Source: Trueperaceae bacterium (GTDB lineage: Bacteria; Deinococcota; Deinococci; Deinococcales; Trueperaceae). From it: a stretch of DNA of 64,000 nt. Positions 1 through 6,499 of the stretch are shown piece by piece. Position numbers and translations under genes: made by a program. The notes beneath the pieces are model-generated. The model made no database searches, was not told the DNA's origin, and saw only the letters and a program-made list of their open reading frames with translations. How positions within the stretch are numbered: the stretch's first letter is position 1; each line of letters begins with the position of its first letter. The stretch spans positions 25,484 to 89,483 of the forward strand of contig JBBDRK010000052.1 of the NCBI GenBank assembly GCA_040905465.1. Reading direction: 5' to 3'.

Positions 1-386
1 AGGAAGGAAACGGCGGCGAGTTACCCAGCGAGCTGACGGAATGGATGCGCGCCTGGCCCTACGAGCTGCTGGTCGAAGGCCTGCACTTCGCCCATGTCGG
101 GCCGCTGCCGGAGCACAACACCTTCGATACCGGCTTCTACCTGGAGAACCGCCGGCGCTGGATCTACGAGGAGCGCGACTGGCTTGACGGTACCGATTAC
201 CGGCTGGGCGTCTACGGTCACACGCCGGTTCGAGGCGGCGTGAACCTCACCTCCAAGGGCCGCGTAATCCTGCTGGATACCAACGGTCACGGCGACGAAT
301 ATTGCTACCTGGAGATCGATACCGAGCCGGACAGTTACCGCTTGCGGATGCGCGGCCTGTTCTTCGACGAGATCGTGAGCCGCTAG
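1..386 (+). CDS. Calcineurin-like metallophosphoesterase (Ser/Thr phosphatase-like), 5'-truncated by the window edge
   Basis: Frame open from the window edge. C-terminal PPP-type motifs FAHVG, VYGHTP and LLDT. Confidence 0.65.
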   Translation, partial: EGNGGELPSELTEWMRAWPYELLVEGLHFAHVGPLPEHNTFDTGFYLENRRRWIYEERDWLDGTDYRLGVYGHTPVRGGVNLTSKGRVILLDTNGHGDEYCYLEIDTEPDSYRLRMRGLFFDEIVSR

Positions 387-462
387 ATCTCCTCGCCATG
401 AGCCGTTAGGTCCATCGGTCGGCGGCCTGTCCTCTGGCGAGATGGTGAGCCGCTACGTTTCG

Positions 463-488
463 TCGGGCGGCAGCCTGTGCTCGCCCGA
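463..488. terminator. Hairpin between convergent genes (possible terminator)
   Basis: TCGGGCG-GCA...TGC-T-CGCCCGA inverted repeat; no strong U-tract. Confidence 0.35.
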
Positions 489-509
489 ACCCGCAACAGC
501 CTGTACGGT

Positions 510-2591
510 TCAGTTTTCGGCTACCTGCGCATATCCGGGGGCGAACAGGAGCCAAATGCGAAACGGCCTCAGGTCCACCGGCCTCCCACCGGAGTCGACG
601 AACGTCACGCCCCGGCCGCCGTCTTGCGCCGGCAGCCACCTTCCCGATATCGCTCTGCCCCGCAGGTGCAGCGTCGCCTCCCCTCCACGGAGCGGGATGT
701 AGAGCCGCCCGGCCGGGTCGTCGGGGATCTGACGGACGTCGATGCTGGCCACCAGCACCGCTTCGACGAACACGGCCTCCCCCCGGAAGTCCACTGCGTT
801 CTCCCCGTTGCGGCGCCACCGGTAGATATCCAGTTCCTGGATGTAGCCGAAGCCGCTCCGGTAGTTGCCGCCGTAGCGCACCTCCACCGATTGCGCCTCG
901 CGGGCGTCCTCGGGAGGGCGCGGCACGACGCCCCGCAGTTCCAACGACCGGTCGAGCCGCAGCCGATTTACCGCTTCTCGCAGAGATACGCCGTTGGAAT
1001 AGAGGTTATACGGGGCGTCCCTCCCCTGCTGGCGGGAGAACAGGTCACCGAAGCGGAAGGCGTTGAGCGTCGGCAAAGTTCCCCTGTCGATGGCGGCGAG
1101 CGCGTCGGGGGAGCCTCCGTCGTGAACCAGGATCCCGTCGTAGCTCCGGGCCAGGTTCACGAAGTAATCGCGAGCGCTGCGGATCGGGCCCACCTGGCCG
1201 GGATCACGACGGTCGTACATGGCCATCAGCCTGGTCAGGCCGCCCTCGACCGGCATCTCGGCGATCAGGGAGGCCTCGGTGAGCCCGGCCTGCGGGTAGC
1301 CCCGGGCATTATCGAGCAGGACGGCCAACGGCCGCTCGCGCTCCTCGCGGTAGGGAATCTGCGGACGCACCGACCTGGCACCGGTTGCGTCGCCCTCGGC
1401 GGTGTCCGCCGCCCGGCCCAGATTACCGGCCTGAGCACCGTCGGCTGCCCGGTCCTGGGCGGTGCGATCGGCATTTCCGCCGGGACGCCTGTCGTCGTTC
1501 CGATTGCTCGGATTGGGAGCCGTGCCGGCAGGGGCGGCGCCGGCGAGTGCCGCGCCACCCTCCGGCTCGGGCGCGGTTACCTCGGCTCGGATCGACGGCG
1601 TAGGTACGGCCACCGGCCGGCTCACCGCCACCTGGGCCGATACCGTGACCGGCCGCGCAGGTGCGACCTCGGCCTGCGCACCCGGCATCGGAATCGCTCG
1701 GGCTCCCGCCACCTCGGCAGCGGCCGTCGGGACCGGCACCGGGCGGGCGGCGGTAACGCTCGCCTCGGCAGCGGGTCGCGGCACCGGTGTGGCCTCGGCA
1801 ACCTCCGCGGCCGCACTCGGTCGTGGGATCGCTACCGCCTCGGCCACCTGGGCCGTGGCCGCCGGCGTAGGTACCGGCTCTGCCGCCGCAACCTCGGCGG
1901 CGGCGCGTGGAACCGGTACCGGCCGCTCCGCCGCGACCCGCACGCTCGGCGTGACCGCCACCGTTCGACTCTCCGGAACTCGTGCCGCGGCTGAGGGCCG
2001 CGGAATCGTGACGGCCTGCTCGGCCGGCCTCGGCGCCAGCTCGACCTCATCGATCTCAGGCAGTGCCGTGGCGGTGGTGGCGGCCACCGGCAAGTCGGCC
2101 GCGGCGGCTGCCGGTTGCGGTTGCCGCACCTGCGGTGTCGGCGCCACGGGAGCCGCGCTTCGGCTGTCCCGGCTGCGCTCGACCGGTTCCTCCGGGGGAG
2201 TGCGCTCCTCGACCGCCTGCTGCCGGGGCCTGGGTTGCGGCTGCGGTTGCGGCACCGGTTGCTCGGTGCGCGGTGCCGGATCGGGCGCCACAGTCTCCGT
2301 ATTGTCGGAAGTCCGCGCTTGCGGCTCACCCGTCTCCTCGTCAGCGACCTGAGGCGTGGGGGCCGCTGGCGCCGCTTCGTCCACCGTCGGGGCCTGCACC
2401 ACCCGGTCGGCCTGCTCCGGATTACCGAGATCTATCACCAGAAACTGCTCGAGCGGCACCGGGCGCGGCTGCGACAGCCACAGGACGAACAGCAGCAGGG
2501 CGCACAGGTGCGCGACCAGCGAAAGCATGAACGCCCGCCGGCGGTCGGCATCGTTCCACCAGCGTCCAAGCACGGCACGGGCGCTCTCCAC
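510..2591 (-). CDS. TonB/TolA-like membrane-anchored Pro/Ala-rich protein with C-terminal DUF3048 (YerB-like) domain
   Basis: N-terminal TM helix with S-x3-H (LSLVAHL) and a long Pro/Ala linker. C-terminus has DUF3048-type motifs (RPLAVLLDN, PQAGL, EMPVEGGLTRLMA, VGPIRSARDYF, VHDGGS). GTG start abuts the exbD stop. Confidence 0.8.
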   Translation of the reverse strand: MESARAVLGRWWNDADRRRAFMLSLVAHLCALLLFVLWLSQPRPVPLEQFLVIDLGNPEQADRVVQAPTVDEAAPAAPTPQVADEETGEPQARTSDNTETVAPDPAPRTEQPVPQPQPQPRPRQQAVEERTPPEEPVERSRDSRSAAPVAPTPQVRQPQPAAAAADLPVAATTATALPEIDEVELAPRPAEQAVTIPRPSAAARVPESRTVAVTPSVRVAAERPVPVPRAAAEVAAAEPVPTPAATAQVAEAVAIPRPSAAAEVAEATPVPRPAAEASVTAARPVPVPTAAAEVAGARAIPMPGAQAEVAPARPVTVSAQVAVSRPVAVPTPSIRAEVTAPEPEGGAALAGAAPAGTAPNPSNRNDDRRPGGNADRTAQDRAADGAQAGNLGRAADTAEGDATGARSVRPQIPYREERERPLAVLLDNARGYPQAGLTEASLIAEMPVEGGLTRLMAMYDRRDPGQVGPIRSARDYFVNLARSYDGILVHDGGSPDALAAIDRGTLPTLNAFRFGDLFSRQQGRDAPYNLYSNGVSLREAVNRLRLDRSLELRGVVPRPPEDAREAQSVEVRYGGNYRSGFGYIQELDIYRWRRNGENAVDFRGEAVFVEAVLVASIDVRQIPDDPAGRLYIPLRGGEATLHLRGRAISGRWLPAQDGGRGVTFVDSGGRPVDLRPFRIWLLFAPGYAQVAEN
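1570..2030 (-). repeat. Degenerate ~15-aa (45-nt) tandem repeats in the linker of the DUF3048 protein
   Basis: Units RPVPVPRAAAEVAAA, EPVPTPAATAQVAEA, VAIPRPSAAAEVAEA, TPVPRPAAEASVTAA, RPVPVPTAAAEVAGA, RAIPMPGAQAEVAPA. Boundaries approximate. Confidence 0.85.
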
Positions 2592-2993
2592 TCAGCCGCC
2601 CGTGGCTATCGAGATGCGCTGCGCCCCGGACTGCCGAATCAGATCGTAGACCCGCACCGCGAGTCCGTGCGGGACGCTCTGGTCGGCCCGGAAGACGACA
2701 ACACCCTGTCCGGTCGCTTCGAGCTGCGCCCTGAGGGCGGCAACGAGCTCCGACTCCTGTATCTCCGTGCCCGCCAGGAAGATCACCTGCTCGCTGGTAA
2801 CGGTGACGGTCGGGATGTCGGTCGCCTGCGCCTGCGAGCTGCTCGCCTGCGGCAGGTCAACCGGCAGTCCGGACTCCAGCGTGATGAAGGTGGTCGAAAC
2901 CATGAAGAAGATGATCAGGAGGAACACCACGTCGACCATCGGCGTGAGGTCGAGGGTCGTGTCGCGCCGGGTGAAGCGCGGCCGGCGTCTCAT
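2592..2993 (-). CDS. exbD: ExbD/TolR family biopolymer transport protein
   Basis: LTPMVDVVFLLIIFFMV with the conserved TM Asp, VDLP and RAD motifs. 4-nt overlap with exbB. Confidence 0.92.
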   Translation of the reverse strand: MRRRPRFTRRDTTLDLTPMVDVVFLLIIFFMVSTTFITLESGLPVDLPQASSSQAQATDIPTVTVTSEQVIFLAGTEIQESELVAALRAQLEATGQGVVVFRADQSVPHGLAVRVYDLIRQSGAQRISIATGG

Positions 2994-3667
2994 GCTTCCG
3001 ACGGAATCGGATCGTAGCTGCGTTCGCTCCTCTTGTCGTCGCCCCGTTTCTCATCGCGCCGCGCCGCTACCACCTGGACGACGTTGCCCATCAACTCCTC
3101 GCGCCGCCGGTCGATCTCGAGCAGAATGCTGTCCACCCGGCTGGCGAGGTAGTTGGCGCCGATGAGCGCCGGGATGGCCACGATCAGGCCGGCGGCAGTT
3201 GTCACCAGCGCCTGCCCGATACCGTCGGCCAGCGCCGCGGGATTGCCGGTACCCTGCTGCGAGATCTCGCCGAAGGCGATGATCATGCCGGTGACCGTAC
3301 CCAACAGCCCCATCAGCGGCGCGATCTGGGCGATCGTCGACAACGGCCTCAATCCGCGCGAGAGACGCTGCTCCTCCTGCAGGGTGGCCTCCTGAAAGGC
3401 CGCCTCCACTGCCGCCCGTCCGTACGGCAGGCGCCTGAGGGCAGACTGGATCACGCGCGCGACCGGGCCCCCGTGACGCTCGCAGGCGGCCAGGGCGAGC
3501 TCCAGATCGCGGTCCCGAACGGCGGCGTTGACCTTCAACATGAGGGCGTCGGCTTCCACCCGTTCCTTCGACAGCTTGAGGAACCGCTCGATGAACAGGT
3601 AGAGAGCGTAAAGCGAAACTATCAGTATAGCGACGAGAATGATGCCGCCGCTCAGAAGTAAATCCAC
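2990..3667 (-). CDS. exbB: MotA/TolQ/ExbB proton channel protein
   Basis: APLMGLLGTVTGMI and GIGQALVTTAAGLIVAIP motifs. SD GAGGAG before the GTG. Confidence 0.92.
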   Translation of the reverse strand: MDLLLSGGIILVAILIVSLYALYLFIERFLKLSKERVEADALMLKVNAAVRDRDLELALAACERHGGPVARVIQSALRRLPYGRAAVEAAFQEATLQEEQRLSRGLRPLSTIAQIAPLMGLLGTVTGMIIAFGEISQQGTGNPAALADGIGQALVTTAAGLIVAIPALIGANYLASRVDSILLEIDRRREELMGNVVQVVAARRDEKRGDDKRSERSYDPIPSEA

Positions 3668-3763
3668 GTGGAGCTCCTCACCTAAATATCACGACATCCT
3701 ATCGGATGATCCCTCCGAAACTGATGAGAGGACACGCTTCCCATGGTACCGCTACCGCGCGGT

Positions 3764-6499
3764 TCAGCCGGTGTTTCGCAATCCGGCCGATATGCCGATC
3801 AGCGTCACCTGCACCGCATATTCGAGGTCGGTCCGGTCCTCGCTCTCGTCGGTAAATCCGCGCAACCGCCGGATCAGCTCGACCTGAAGATGGGAGATGG
3901 GGTCGACGTAGGGGTTGCGCAAATCTATCGCCCGGGCAAGTGTGGCGTCATGTTCCAGCAGGGGTGAACCGGTGGCAGCCTCCACACGCGCGACCGACAG
4001 GCGGTGCTCGTGCCGGATCATCGGCCAGAACCGATCGACGAGCTCGGGATCGACGAGCTGCAGATACCTCTCGAAGATGCCCATGTCCGCTTTCGCCAGG
4101 CTCATCTGGGCGAAATCGAGGATCGTCCGGAAGAACGGCCACTCCCGGTACATCTCTTGCAGCTCGGCGTCCTGCAACTCGGCCAGCCCGCTGCCCAGGC
4201 CGAACCAGCCGGGAAGGTTGGCCCGGCACTGGGTCCAGGAGAACACCCAGGGGATGGCGCGAAGGTTGGCGAGAGCCTTGTCGCCCTTGCGCCTCACCGG
4301 CCGCGAACCAATCTGCAAGCGGCTGATCTCCTCTATCGGGGTCACCTGATGGAAGAAATCGAGGAAGCCGGGCGCTTCCAGTAGTTCGCGGTAACGCCGT
4401 TGGGCTCGCTCGGAGGCGCGCGACAACGCGTTGCGATAGCGCTCGGGCAGCTCCGCCAGGGGCCGGGCGTCTCTCGCGGAGGAGAGTATGAACGCATGAG
4501 CCACCTGCTCAAGGTGGCGGTGGGCGAGGTCGGGGTCGCTGTAACGCTCGCTGAGCGCCTCGCCCTGTTCCGTCAGCCGCATCCGGCCGTTGAGCGAACC
4601 GGGCGGTTGAGCGAGTATCGCCTGGCCGCTGGGGCCGCCGCCGCGGCCGATCGACGTGCCGCGGCCGTGAAAGAGCCGAAGCCGCACGCCGGCTTCCCGG
4701 CAGACGCGCGCTACCCCCTCCTGGGCCCGAAACAGCGCCCAATTGGCGGCCAGGAACCCGGCGTCCTTGTTCGAATCGGAGTAGCCGATCATCACTTCCT
4801 GGACGCCGCGCCGCTCCACGTGGCGCCGGTAGGCTGGGAGGGCGAACAGCTCACTCAGGACCTCGGGGGCGCGGCCGAGATCCTCTTCGGTTTCGAACAG
4901 CGGGGTCGCGTCGATGTCGGGGAAACCGGCCTGCTTGGCCAGCACCAGCACCTCCAGCACGTCGCTGACGCCTTCGGTCATCGACACGATGTAACTTCCG
5001 GTGGCGTGCGGCCCGTAGCGCGCTCGGGCTTGGCGAAACACCCGCAGGAACGCCAGCGCCCGCTCGGTCTCGGGCGCCAGCTCGGCGCCCTCGGGAGCGA
5101 AGGGGCGCAGCGACGACAGCTCGGCGGCGAGCAGCGCGACGCGCTCCCTTTCCGGCAGCTCGGCATATCCGTCGCTCACGCCGGCGATTCGCAAGAGGTC
5201 GGCGGCGGCGGCTTCGTGGACTCGCGAGTGCTCACGCAGGTCGATGGCCGCGAGATGAAGGCCGAACGCCGCGGCCCGGTAACGGAGCGGCCGTACGAAC
5301 GCTCTGGCGGCCCGAACGCCATCACCCTGCGCCAGGGTCTCCTCTATCAGCGCCAGGTCGCGCTCGAACGCCTCCGCCCCACCCGGGTAAGCGCCGCCAC
5401 CCTCCGCCAGGCCACGCTGCTCTTCCTCGCGCAAGAATGCATGCATGTGAAACAGCTTCTGCCGAAACGGCTCGCCCGGGAAGCGCTCCGGCCGGCCATG
5501 CCGTTCGTTGAGCTCCTCGAGGTCGGTGGCGAATGCCGGCGTGATCGACACTCGCCGCTCCCACTGCGACAGACGCTGCACCAGGCCGTCGACGTCGGCG
5601 ATCGCCTGCTGCAAGGCCACATCCGCCTGCAGGCGGTAGGCCTCCTCCGTGGTTTCGGGCAGCACGAACGGGTTGCCGTCGCGATCGCCGCCGATCCAGG
5701 AACGGAAGCGAATAACCGGCGGGAGCAGACGCGAGATGCCGTTGCCCGCTTCGTCCTGGTCGAAATACGTCTCCAACGCACCTTCCATGTCGAGCATCAG
5801 TTGCGGCACGGCCCTCAGGAGCGATCGCCGGTAGTAGTAAAGAGCACTCTTGACCTCGTCGATGACCGTCGGCTTCACGGAGAACAGCTCGCGCGTTTGC
5901 CACAAGGTACTGATCTCGGCGTGGATCTCGTCCTCGAGCGCCCGGCGTTGCCTGGGTGAGAGGGCGTGCTCGGAGAGGCGTCGCAGCGCAGATGCCACGC
6001 GCTCGAGCTTGAGCCGGATGGTGTAGCGCTTCACTTCGGTGGGATGCGCCGTCATCGTCATCCCGATATCGAGGTCCTCGACGAAGCGCCGCACCTCTGC
6101 CCCCGACCAGCCCTGGTCCTTGAGGAACTTCACCGCCGCCGCCACCGACTCGCCCCTGGGCGAGTCCGGCGTGGAGCGTCCTTCACGCAGGCGGTTGACG
6201 CGCACCCGGTGGATCTCCTCGGCGAGATTGATCAGCTGGAAGTACACCGTGAACGCCCTCAGTACCCGCTCGGCGCTGTCCAGGGAGAGCCCTGCCAGCA
6301 GCGCCTGCAGCTCCTCTTTTAGATCCGATCGGTCCGGCTCGCCGCGAAGGCGCTTGGTGAGCGAACGGACACGTTCGACCAGGTCGAATAGCTGCTCGCC
6401 CTCGAGCTCCTTGAGCACGTTCCCGAGCGCGCTCCCGAGGAAGTCGACGTCGGCGCGCAGCCGTGCGAATGCGTCGTCGTTGGCAGGCTGGTCGCTCAT
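3764..6499 (-). CDS. ppc: Phosphoenolpyruvate carboxylase
   Basis: TAHPTE, WIGGDRDGNP, QEVMIGYSDSNKD, FHGRGTSIGRGG, LRAIPWVFSWTQ, C-terminal GLRNTG. Start placed at MSDQP after a TACAAT box. Confidence 0.97.
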   Translation of the reverse strand: MSDQPANDDAFARLRADVDFLGSALGNVLKELEGEQLFDLVERVRSLTKRLRGEPDRSDLKEELQALLAGLSLDSAERVLRAFTVYFQLINLAEEIHRVRVNRLREGRSTPDSPRGESVAAAVKFLKDQGWSGAEVRRFVEDLDIGMTMTAHPTEVKRYTIRLKLERVASALRRLSEHALSPRQRRALEDEIHAEISTLWQTRELFSVKPTVIDEVKSALYYYRRSLLRAVPQLMLDMEGALETYFDQDEAGNGISRLLPPVIRFRSWIGGDRDGNPFVLPETTEEAYRLQADVALQQAIADVDGLVQRLSQWERRVSITPAFATDLEELNERHGRPERFPGEPFRQKLFHMHAFLREEEQRGLAEGGGAYPGGAEAFERDLALIEETLAQGDGVRAARAFVRPLRYRAAAFGLHLAAIDLREHSRVHEAAAADLLRIAGVSDGYAELPERERVALLAAELSSLRPFAPEGAELAPETERALAFLRVFRQARARYGPHATGSYIVSMTEGVSDVLEVLVLAKQAGFPDIDATPLFETEEDLGRAPEVLSELFALPAYRRHVERRGVQEVMIGYSDSNKDAGFLAANWALFRAQEGVARVCREAGVRLRLFHGRGTSIGRGGGPSGQAILAQPPGSLNGRMRLTEQGEALSERYSDPDLAHRHLEQVAHAFILSSARDARPLAELPERYRNALSRASERAQRRYRELLEAPGFLDFFHQVTPIEEISRLQIGSRPVRRKGDKALANLRAIPWVFSWTQCRANLPGWFGLGSGLAELQDAELQEMYREWPFFRTILDFAQMSLAKADMGIFERYLQLVDPELVDRFWPMIRHEHRLSVARVEAATGSPLLEHDATLARAIDLRNPYVDPISHLQVELIRRLRGFTDESEDRTDLEYAVQVTLIGISAGLRNTG

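Follow-up and report, generated by a model that had tools for sequence, protein, structure and literature searches.

A TonB-like stalk with a DUF3048/YerB head encoded behind exbB and exbD in Trueperaceae, a candidate Ton/Tol-type transducer acting on the cell envelope

Stalk proteins that end in something other than a TonB head have recently been described beside TolQR-like motors: the main text of Williams-Jones et al. (2025, Mol Biol Evol, PMC12204202) presents vWA-tipped, motor-driven force transducers and a tetratricopeptide repeat (TPR) gene that adjoins them. For TonB itself, passages of a cryo-EM account (PMC12215075) place Ser16 and His20 of the anchor in contact with Ser34 and Trp38 of ExbB, and give the Leu/Ser half of the SHLS motif as the less conserved half in Ton systems. 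Passages of a further article (PMC10907165) describe the TonB D-box as a beta-strand with flanking prolines, right after the anchor, that is captured by the ExbD dimer. Here we analyse an operon of three genes, exbB, exbD and a third that we call gene 3, from a Trueperaceae bacterium (GCA_040905465.1, contig JBBDRK010000052.1, positions 25,484 to 89,483); the whole 64,000-nucleotide stretch is referred to as the window. We consider it probable, at roughly 0.65, that this operon encodes a Ton/Tol-type transducer driven by the proton-motive force (PMF) and carrying a YerB head, which acts on the envelope and not in receptor-mediated uptake.

The operon fills the first 3.7 kb of the window, where the listing of open reading frames (ORFs) gives three co-directional genes on the minus strand: exbB (2990-3667, 225 aa), exbD (2592-2993, 133 aa) and gene 3 (510-2591, 693 aa, with a GTG start), the last encoding a TonB-like stalk with a DUF3048/YerB head. 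An earlier reading made from the letters alone (hereafter the sequence-only reading) had described the three genes as tightly coupled, and this is seen directly at the junctions, with the exbB stop codon and the exbD ATG sharing four nucleotides as ATGA and the exbD TGA followed by the gene 3 GTG with a spacer of 0 nt.

The products of exbB and exbD belong to the ExbB/TolQ/MotA plus ExbD/TolR motor family, as judged by PF01618 in the MotA/TolQ/ExbB-type proton-channel subunit (E 1.2e-32), PF02472 in the ExbD/TolR-type subunit (E 2.4e-30) and a transmembrane (TM) aspartate in ExbD, Asp21, which is invariant across an alignment of 42 orthologues. In the HMMER alignment, which is weak in TM1, Pro166 of the window's ExbB falls opposite Pro190 of E. 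coli ExbB. Against the NCBIfam equivalog models (ExbB, TolQ, ExbD and TolR) the two proteins score far under every cut-off, so the motor is in the family without being either canonical subtype. The window's ExbB is marginally nearer the TolQ model (86 against a cut-off of 221) than the ExbB model (75 against 206), and ExbD is likewise nearer TolR, all of these scores being below cut-off.

Public annotation has the product of gene 3 as a DUF3048 domain-containing protein of 672 aa starting at Met22, a start that drops an arginine cluster and the first part of the TM helix (2529-2591 of the window, minus strand); an alignment of orthologues supports the GTG at 2591 as the probable start instead. 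From that start, sequence and alignment give R17-R18-R19, with the N-terminus inside, and then a TM helix at residues ~20-41 (2469-2534, minus strand) that carries S24-L-V-A-H28. The residues RRA are invariant in 34 aligned gene 3 N-termini, and S-x3-H is kept in the window and in 39/39 assessable Trueperaceae loci (locus L028 of that family reads S-L-L-V-H).

Past a short proline-rich turn, residues 47-58 (L-E-Q-F-L-V-I-D-L-G-N-P; 2418-2453, minus strand) align as a hydrophobic, proline-flanked strand of the beta type. This strand is conserved in 33 of the 34 aligned N-termini, as xYLVIDLGxP in Trueperaceae and as GYLLLELG in the Oceanithermus family. It matches the TonB D-box in form and in place and is a putative contact for ExbD. 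A complex prediction with two copies of ExbD residues 45-133 and gene 3 residues 40-80 gave scores of 0.29 and 0.21 against a mark of 0.32, and weighs neither way.

The linker that follows (residues ~59-412; 1356-2417, minus strand) is of low complexity and has no Pfam match; its residues 60-405 are 25% Ala, 16.5% Pro and 11% Val. Over 39 Trueperaceae orthologues the whole stalk protein measures 624-840 aa. The anatomy given in the sequence-only reading, namely one N-terminal TM helix with S-x3-H as a TonB/TolA-like anchor, a long Pro/Ala linker and a DUF3048 head, thus stands, as far as Pfam and sequence can tell and with Ser24 and His28 conserved in Trueperaceae, except that the linker is nearer 350 aa than the ~380 aa stated there, the ordered head beginning at residue ~413.

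The head itself is clearly assigned. Residues 415-543 (963-1349, minus strand) match the DUF3048 N-terminal domain PF11258 with E 2.6e-35 and 122.2 bits (cut-off 25), and residues 569-680 (552-887, minus strand) match DUF3048_C, PF17479, with E 9.3e-07 and 29.7 bits (same cut-off), in a region also covered by the alignment to PDB entry 2psb. Scanned against Pfam at E<=0.1, gene 3 matched nothing else, neither TonB_C (PF03544) nor TolA. A sequence search of the PDB retrieved a single solved match, Bacillus subtilis YerB (2psb, E 3.3e-26), and an AlphaFold2 (AF2) model of residues 400-693, built with 33 orthologues at a mean predicted local distance difference test (pLDDT) score of 93.4, superposes on 2psb with a TM-score of 0.80 (Foldseek) and Z 33 (VIA) at 27-28% identity. 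Pfam, the 2psb match and the fold therefore agree with the earlier assignment of the C-terminus to DUF3048 and not to TonB_C.

Beyond 2psb, Foldseek against the PDB returned nothing under E 0.001, the next fold match in a wide VIA search reached only Z 3.5, so the head fold offers no functional hint, and a feature search of the ESM Atlas with DUF3048 clusters excluded gave no usable match. Among the papers found in our literature searches the term DUF3048 occurs only in passing, and YerB without functional data. For each of 13 polar residues of the head (N428, E445, E449, R454, R471, S472, R474, Y476, H490, S494, R520, N529 and D625), conservation across 78 family members, chiefly short forms, reaches 85% or more. 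Such near-invariance indicates that the head is no degenerate spacer, and it probably keeps the ligand-binding or catalytic site of its family.

To see how far the operon is kept, we used a Deinococcota sample of 201 genomes, made up of five families (f1 to f5) and the window's own genome. DUF3048 was found in 50 of them: the window's genome and 40/40 others of its own family, Trueperaceae (f1), and 9/9 of f4, with 0/92 in f2, 0/57 in f3 and 0/2 in f5. We refer to f4 as the Oceanithermus family, since it includes a protein (locus L029) identical to an Oceanithermus desulfurans record. Deinococcus radiodurans and Thermus thermophilus, taken as controls, contain ExbB and ExbD and no DUF3048, and these two controls lead us to infer that f2 is a Deinococcus-like and f3 a Thermus-like family.

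Synteny was then assessed over all 49 other Deinococcota DUF3048 loci. In 48 of these the stalk gene is immediately preceded by exbB and exbD in the same orientation, and the one exception, L009, begins inside the linker at a contig end; the conserved link to exbBD on which the sequence-only reading had staked its case is therefore found wherever it could be. With starts chosen by rule, gene 3 begins no more than 35 nt after the exbD stop in 45/48 loci. One argument of the sequence-only reading fares poorly here, namely that the motor energises or positions the head across the thick Deinococcota envelope: it is weak because the Deinococcus-like family has no DUF3048 at all.

What the Deinococcus-like genomes have instead is a different head at the same place. 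Their exbB-exbD pair is followed by a protein of ~600-950 aa that has a helix with T-x3-H, a strand between prolines, a long linker of Pro, Ala and Thr, and finally a C-terminal domain of ~110 aa without a Pfam match (L054:5387-7180, plus strand; also L053, L055 and L136-L177, a set that includes some Thermus-like genomes). This ~110-aa head was found in 66/68 of f2 and 10/42 of f3, in 0/4 of f1 and 0/6 of f4, and not in the window's genome, a distribution that is the mirror image of that of DUF3048. The exbB gene lies upstream in 15/15 wide loci, and exbD went undetected by tblastn in three of the Thermus-like loci. The head contains two invariant cysteines and a W-P pair; its model (pLDDT 82) has one structural match, a weak one, to Treponema pallidum Tp0624 (5jir, E 0.016, TMq 0.65), and by this structural-match test the predicted domain is not a TonB_C fold. 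With complementary heads at one operon slot, the sister families use the same chassis of motor and stalk with different heads on it.

The arrangement is not confined to Deinococcota. With E<=0.001 as the limit, an exhaustive, profile-free search with the head retrieved 5,734 representative proteins; long fused forms make up the top ~50, and most of the others are 320-400 aa long. Among the long matches, DUF3048 proteins with TonB-like N-termini come from Atribacterota, going by cluster names (Thermatribacter, Atrimonas and Caldatribacteriota). In these stalks the motif reads S-x3-N or S-x3-H, and E-[LI]-P comes after a hydrophobic strand. A genome scan yielded 80 loci, 33 of them full-length-type matches (30 with Atribacter-type titles) and 47 from Bacillota. 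For the Atribacterota-type loci, exbB and exbD lie upstream in 24/33. The remaining nine are undecided: in two of them exbD alone is seen, at the edge of a contig, and in seven the sequence upstream does not exceed 631 nt. In one of the seven, L081, the 478 nt ahead of the stalk gene (L081:1-478) contain no ExbD-like ORF; it was counted as undecided because related loci have a spacer of ~300 nt there. Such a non-coding spacer between exbD and the stalk gene characterises one Atribacterota clade (L070:5260-5590).

Adjacency is thus kept in both phyla while ExbB and ExbD are 35-45% identical between them. In a quick tree of the heads, the Atribacterota-type sequences nest among short forms and apart from the Deinococcota clade; an approximately unbiased (AU) test did not reject a single clade of all fused forms (p 0.53), and the tree accordingly leaves it undecided whether the fusion arose once or twice.

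Most DUF3048 proteins are of a different build, short (about 340-400 aa) and with no motor nearby, and within 6-kb flanks of the Bacillota YerB loci exbB or exbD was found in 0/47. In Clostridia the short YerB-type gene stands directly after dgkA in a phoH-(7TM-HD)-ybeY-dgkA ... cdd-era-recO cluster (L123:5042-6834, L133:4784-6879 and L090:1034-3098), with dgkA fused to PAP2 in L123, and in one Atribacterota clade lgt overlaps the end of the stalk gene. The dgkA neighbourhood and the lgt of some Atribacterota are a faint pointer to membrane-lipid or carrier-lipid chemistry.

We then asked which partners of canonical Ton and Tol systems accompany the operon. The window's assembly, of 81 contigs and 95% completeness, totals 3.53 Mb; MotA/ExbB and DUF3048 each match once in it, within the exbB-exbD-gene 3 operon. 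TonB-dependent receptors (TBDTs) gave 0 matches for barrel (PF00593) and plug (PF07715), and TolB_N (PF04052) likewise gave 0; Pal was not searched for. The observation of the sequence-only reading that neither a TonB-dependent receptor nor tolB occurs in the window therefore holds for the whole assembly.

TonB_C (PF03544) had one match genome-wide, at 16.7 bits and below the cut-off, which we rejected as spurious; it lies inside a 385-aa cytoplasmic release-factor-like ORF on contig C29 (L003:1489-2646, minus strand) that we take, judging by eye, to be of the baeRF type. A gene of baeRF family 10 is also present near an Atribacterota operon (L057:11480-12646). TonB_2 (PF13103) reached a sub-threshold 16 bits elsewhere in the genome, with a weak control for that model. 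Without a TonB_C domain and without receptors, a canonical TonB reading of the operon was rejected.

The same scarcity extends across the sampled Deinococcota, where TBDT barrels (PF00593) occur in 1/201 genomes, an assembly of 190 contigs (G199) in which the receptor matches sit on short contigs, C13 and C15. Neither a receptor barrel nor TonB_C is present on a complete Atrimonadaceae chromosome, and among 5 Atribacterota genomes these were found in one only, both on one short contig (G205 C89). In both phyla the short-contig matches may be contamination.

The claim of the sequence-only reading that the system does not serve nutrient uptake is borne out for import through TonB-dependent receptors, as far as a 95%-complete genome allows. 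It could still be supposed that the operon is a true TonB analogue whose head opens an outer-membrane channel of a kind other than the TBDTs. General Ton logic would apply to such a system, and the outer-membrane repertoires of Deinococcota and Atribacterota have been poorly catalogued. Against this stand the lack of a barrel or plug homologue in the genome, the lack of any outer-membrane or transporter gene conserved beside the operon, and the fact that the head family lives chiefly in monoderms, which have no outer membrane; we regard uptake by this route as very improbable.

A more specific version of the envelope reading deserves greater weight, although we still think it unlikely. Here the operon would be the counterpart of TolQRA in diderms without Pal and TolB, its head binding peptidoglycan or an outer-membrane tether so that the outer membrane follows the septum. 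The slightly better scores of ExbB and ExbD against the TolQ and TolR models, all far below cut-off, fit such a role, as do the absence of TBDTs from the genome and the single-copy, housekeeping-like presence of the operon in all 40 other Trueperaceae and all 9 Oceanithermus-family genomes sampled. A further parallel comes from Atribacterota, where, in every locus with sufficient upstream DNA, the gene before exbB encodes a giant TPR protein. CpoB of the tol-pal system contains TPR, and the upstream gene of Atribacterota recalls it. That gene is likewise reminiscent of the TPR gene that adjoins the vWA transducers in the main text of PMC12204202. On the other side, no TPR gene was found next to the Deinococcota operons, the genome has no TolB_N match, the operon contains no division or peptidoglycan genes, and binding of peptidoglycan by DUF3048 is purely hypothetical.

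Returning to the broader proposal of a PMF-driven transducer acting on the envelope, we picture it as follows. ExbB and ExbD, from their family membership, would form the inner-membrane motor. Gene 3 would sit beside it through the N-terminal helix with Ser24 and His28, and the strand after the helix would be positioned to be grasped by the periplasmic domains of ExbD in the manner of the TonB D-box; motif conservation, position and synteny all suggest this placement. The Pro/Ala linker of ~350 residues would carry the head away from the inner membrane. Given its near-invariant polar residues, the head would probably bind or process an envelope ligand like that of the YerB proteins tethered to the membrane in monoderms. 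With no TonB-dependent receptors in the genome, the output would be maintenance or remodelling of the envelope (wall, outer-membrane tether or surface layer) and not receptor-mediated import of nutrients. The docking of gene 3, the transfer of force or energy and the target are in this scheme what we infer from the observations above.

Several observations weigh against this proposal. The contact of gene 3 with ExbB or ExbD is predicted from motifs, position and synteny. The SHLS motif is half present, for at the x6 spacing after His28 stands Phe35 and not Leu, and at the following x3 spacing Leu39, with Ser40 one position off. The His of S-x3-H is found in 0/9 loci of the Oceanithermus family, where the operon is nonetheless kept, and the Atribacterota stalks mostly carry Asn rather than His. 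No further partner gene is conserved within the operon among the Deinococcota loci. Apart from 2psb no structural relative informs on the head, the papers found report no function for it, and an envelope ligand for it is a guess. Finally, a 95%-complete draft cannot prove that receptors are absent.

As regards the Oceanithermus family, its stalk helices (L004, L016, L029, L033, L039, L040, L042, L043 and L049) have no His and usually no Ser. The ExbB TM1 sites S18 and L22, which fall opposite the Ser and Trp of TolQ in a weak HMMER alignment that is not significant alone, are S and L/V in every Trueperaceae row and T and A/G in 9/9 Oceanithermus-family rows, so that the genomes with altered ExbB sites are the same group whose stalk helix lost the His. 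This co-variation hints at a contact and is suggestive only, because it reflects a single evolutionary split between two families; that one split, read through a TM1 alignment not significant by itself, also counts among the weak points of the proposal. We would like to note that, with Oceanithermus operons lacking the His, a test of whether the His is essential may not settle the question of coupling.

The loss of this His, which evolution has been able to dispense with in the Oceanithermus family (kept in 0/9 loci), suits a plainer explanation, as does the abundance of short DUF3048 proteins (~340-400 aa) with no motor nearby: gene 3 could be a membrane-anchored periplasmic protein of the YerB type, held by a generic signal anchor, co-transcribed by chance with a motor that is inert on it. 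Chance co-transcription does not sit well with adjacency kept in two phyla at 35-45% ExbB/ExbD identity, nor a generic anchor with TonB-type motifs and a D-box-like strand. An inert motor would moreover be left without any other candidate partner in the genome, and sister families have another head in this position of the operon. We consider this passive arrangement improbable.

As to the surroundings of the operon, a convergent gene lies just downstream of gene 3 (window 3-386, plus strand), cut by the window start and without a Pfam match; it is kept at the same position in 24/49 Deinococcota loci at 63-88% identity. Upstream of the operon, ppc is present in 15 loci. Both were rejected as extra partners, being outside the operon and uninformative. 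A search of window 1-4200 for tandem repeats, promoters and terminators gave nothing exceeding chance.

The wider interest of the locus lies in the motor as much as in the head. Most Deinococcota families keep an ExbB/ExbD motor and a TonB-like partner despite receptor barrels in only 1/201 sampled genomes, which raises the question of what the motor does there. The operon names a partner for that motor, and cultured relatives such as Oceanithermus desulfurans allow the question to be tested. It also offers a first functional lead for DUF3048/YerB, a family with a structure dating from 2007 and the 5,734 representative clusters mentioned above.

We would go further only tentatively, with a proposal that may well prove too broad. 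The DUF3048 stalks could constitute a third functional class of Ton/Tol-like system, an envelope-maintenance motor of outer-membrane lineages without Pal/TolB or receptors (Trueperaceae, the Oceanithermus family and Atribacterota), in which the PMF would gate or position an enzyme-like YerB head on the wall or on outer-membrane tethering. Were this so, the exchangeable heads of Deinococcota would mean general-purpose motors onto which different periplasmic effectors are plugged.

Set beside known systems, the head is a clear homologue of B. subtilis YerB (2PSB) with the near-invariant polar residues kept, whereas the YerB-type proteins are ~320-400 aa long, have a short N-terminal anchor and lack motor genes (0/47 Bacillota loci). 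With E. coli TonB gene 3 shares the N-in TM helix with S-x3-H, the proline-flanked strand, the Pro-rich spacer and the operon link to exbBD; it differs in having no TonB_C, no receptors in the genome and no second half of SHLS. Its linker of ~350 aa is also several-fold longer than the spacer of E. coli TonB. With TolA of Tol-Pal it shares the anchor logic, a motor marginally nearer the TolQ/TolR models and a plausible role in envelope maintenance, and it differs from it in lacking a TolA C-terminal domain, in a genome with no TolB_N match, Pal not having been searched for.

The vWA transducers of PMC12204202, as presented in its main text, come closest. In common are a TM helix with the Ser/His part of SHLS, a disordered or Pro-rich linker, a motor-box strand, a globular C-terminal domain that is neither TonB nor TolA, and adjacent tolQ/tolR-like motor genes, and the Atribacterota version shares the upstream TPR gene as well. 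The features of an alternative-head transducer (a Ser/His TM helix, a disordered linker with a motor box, exbBD-like adjacency) are thus all present in the window. The head here is PF11258 plus PF17479 and has no vWA fold; there is one exbD here and a heterologous pair there; and the hosts are Deinococcota and Atribacterota here, as against Proteobacteria, PVC, Bacteroidetes and Rhodothermaeota in that main text.

Neither 'DUF3048' nor 'Deinococc' appears in the main text of PMC12204202, whose supplements might list such loci, and our literature searches found no DUF3048-tipped form in print; those on ExbB with Deinococcus and on Atribacter with ExbD or TonB found no description of the operon. 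Of the novelty that the sequence-only reading had claimed for a new PMF-driven system, the DUF3048-tipped form is what stands, while stalks with non-TonB heads beside tolQR-like motors were already published in 2025 (PMC12204202, main text). The comparison suggests an as yet undescribed variant among the machines supplying the outer envelope with energy, and it widens the 2025 concept of motor-driven transducers by a new head, new phyla and the exchange of heads within one phylum.

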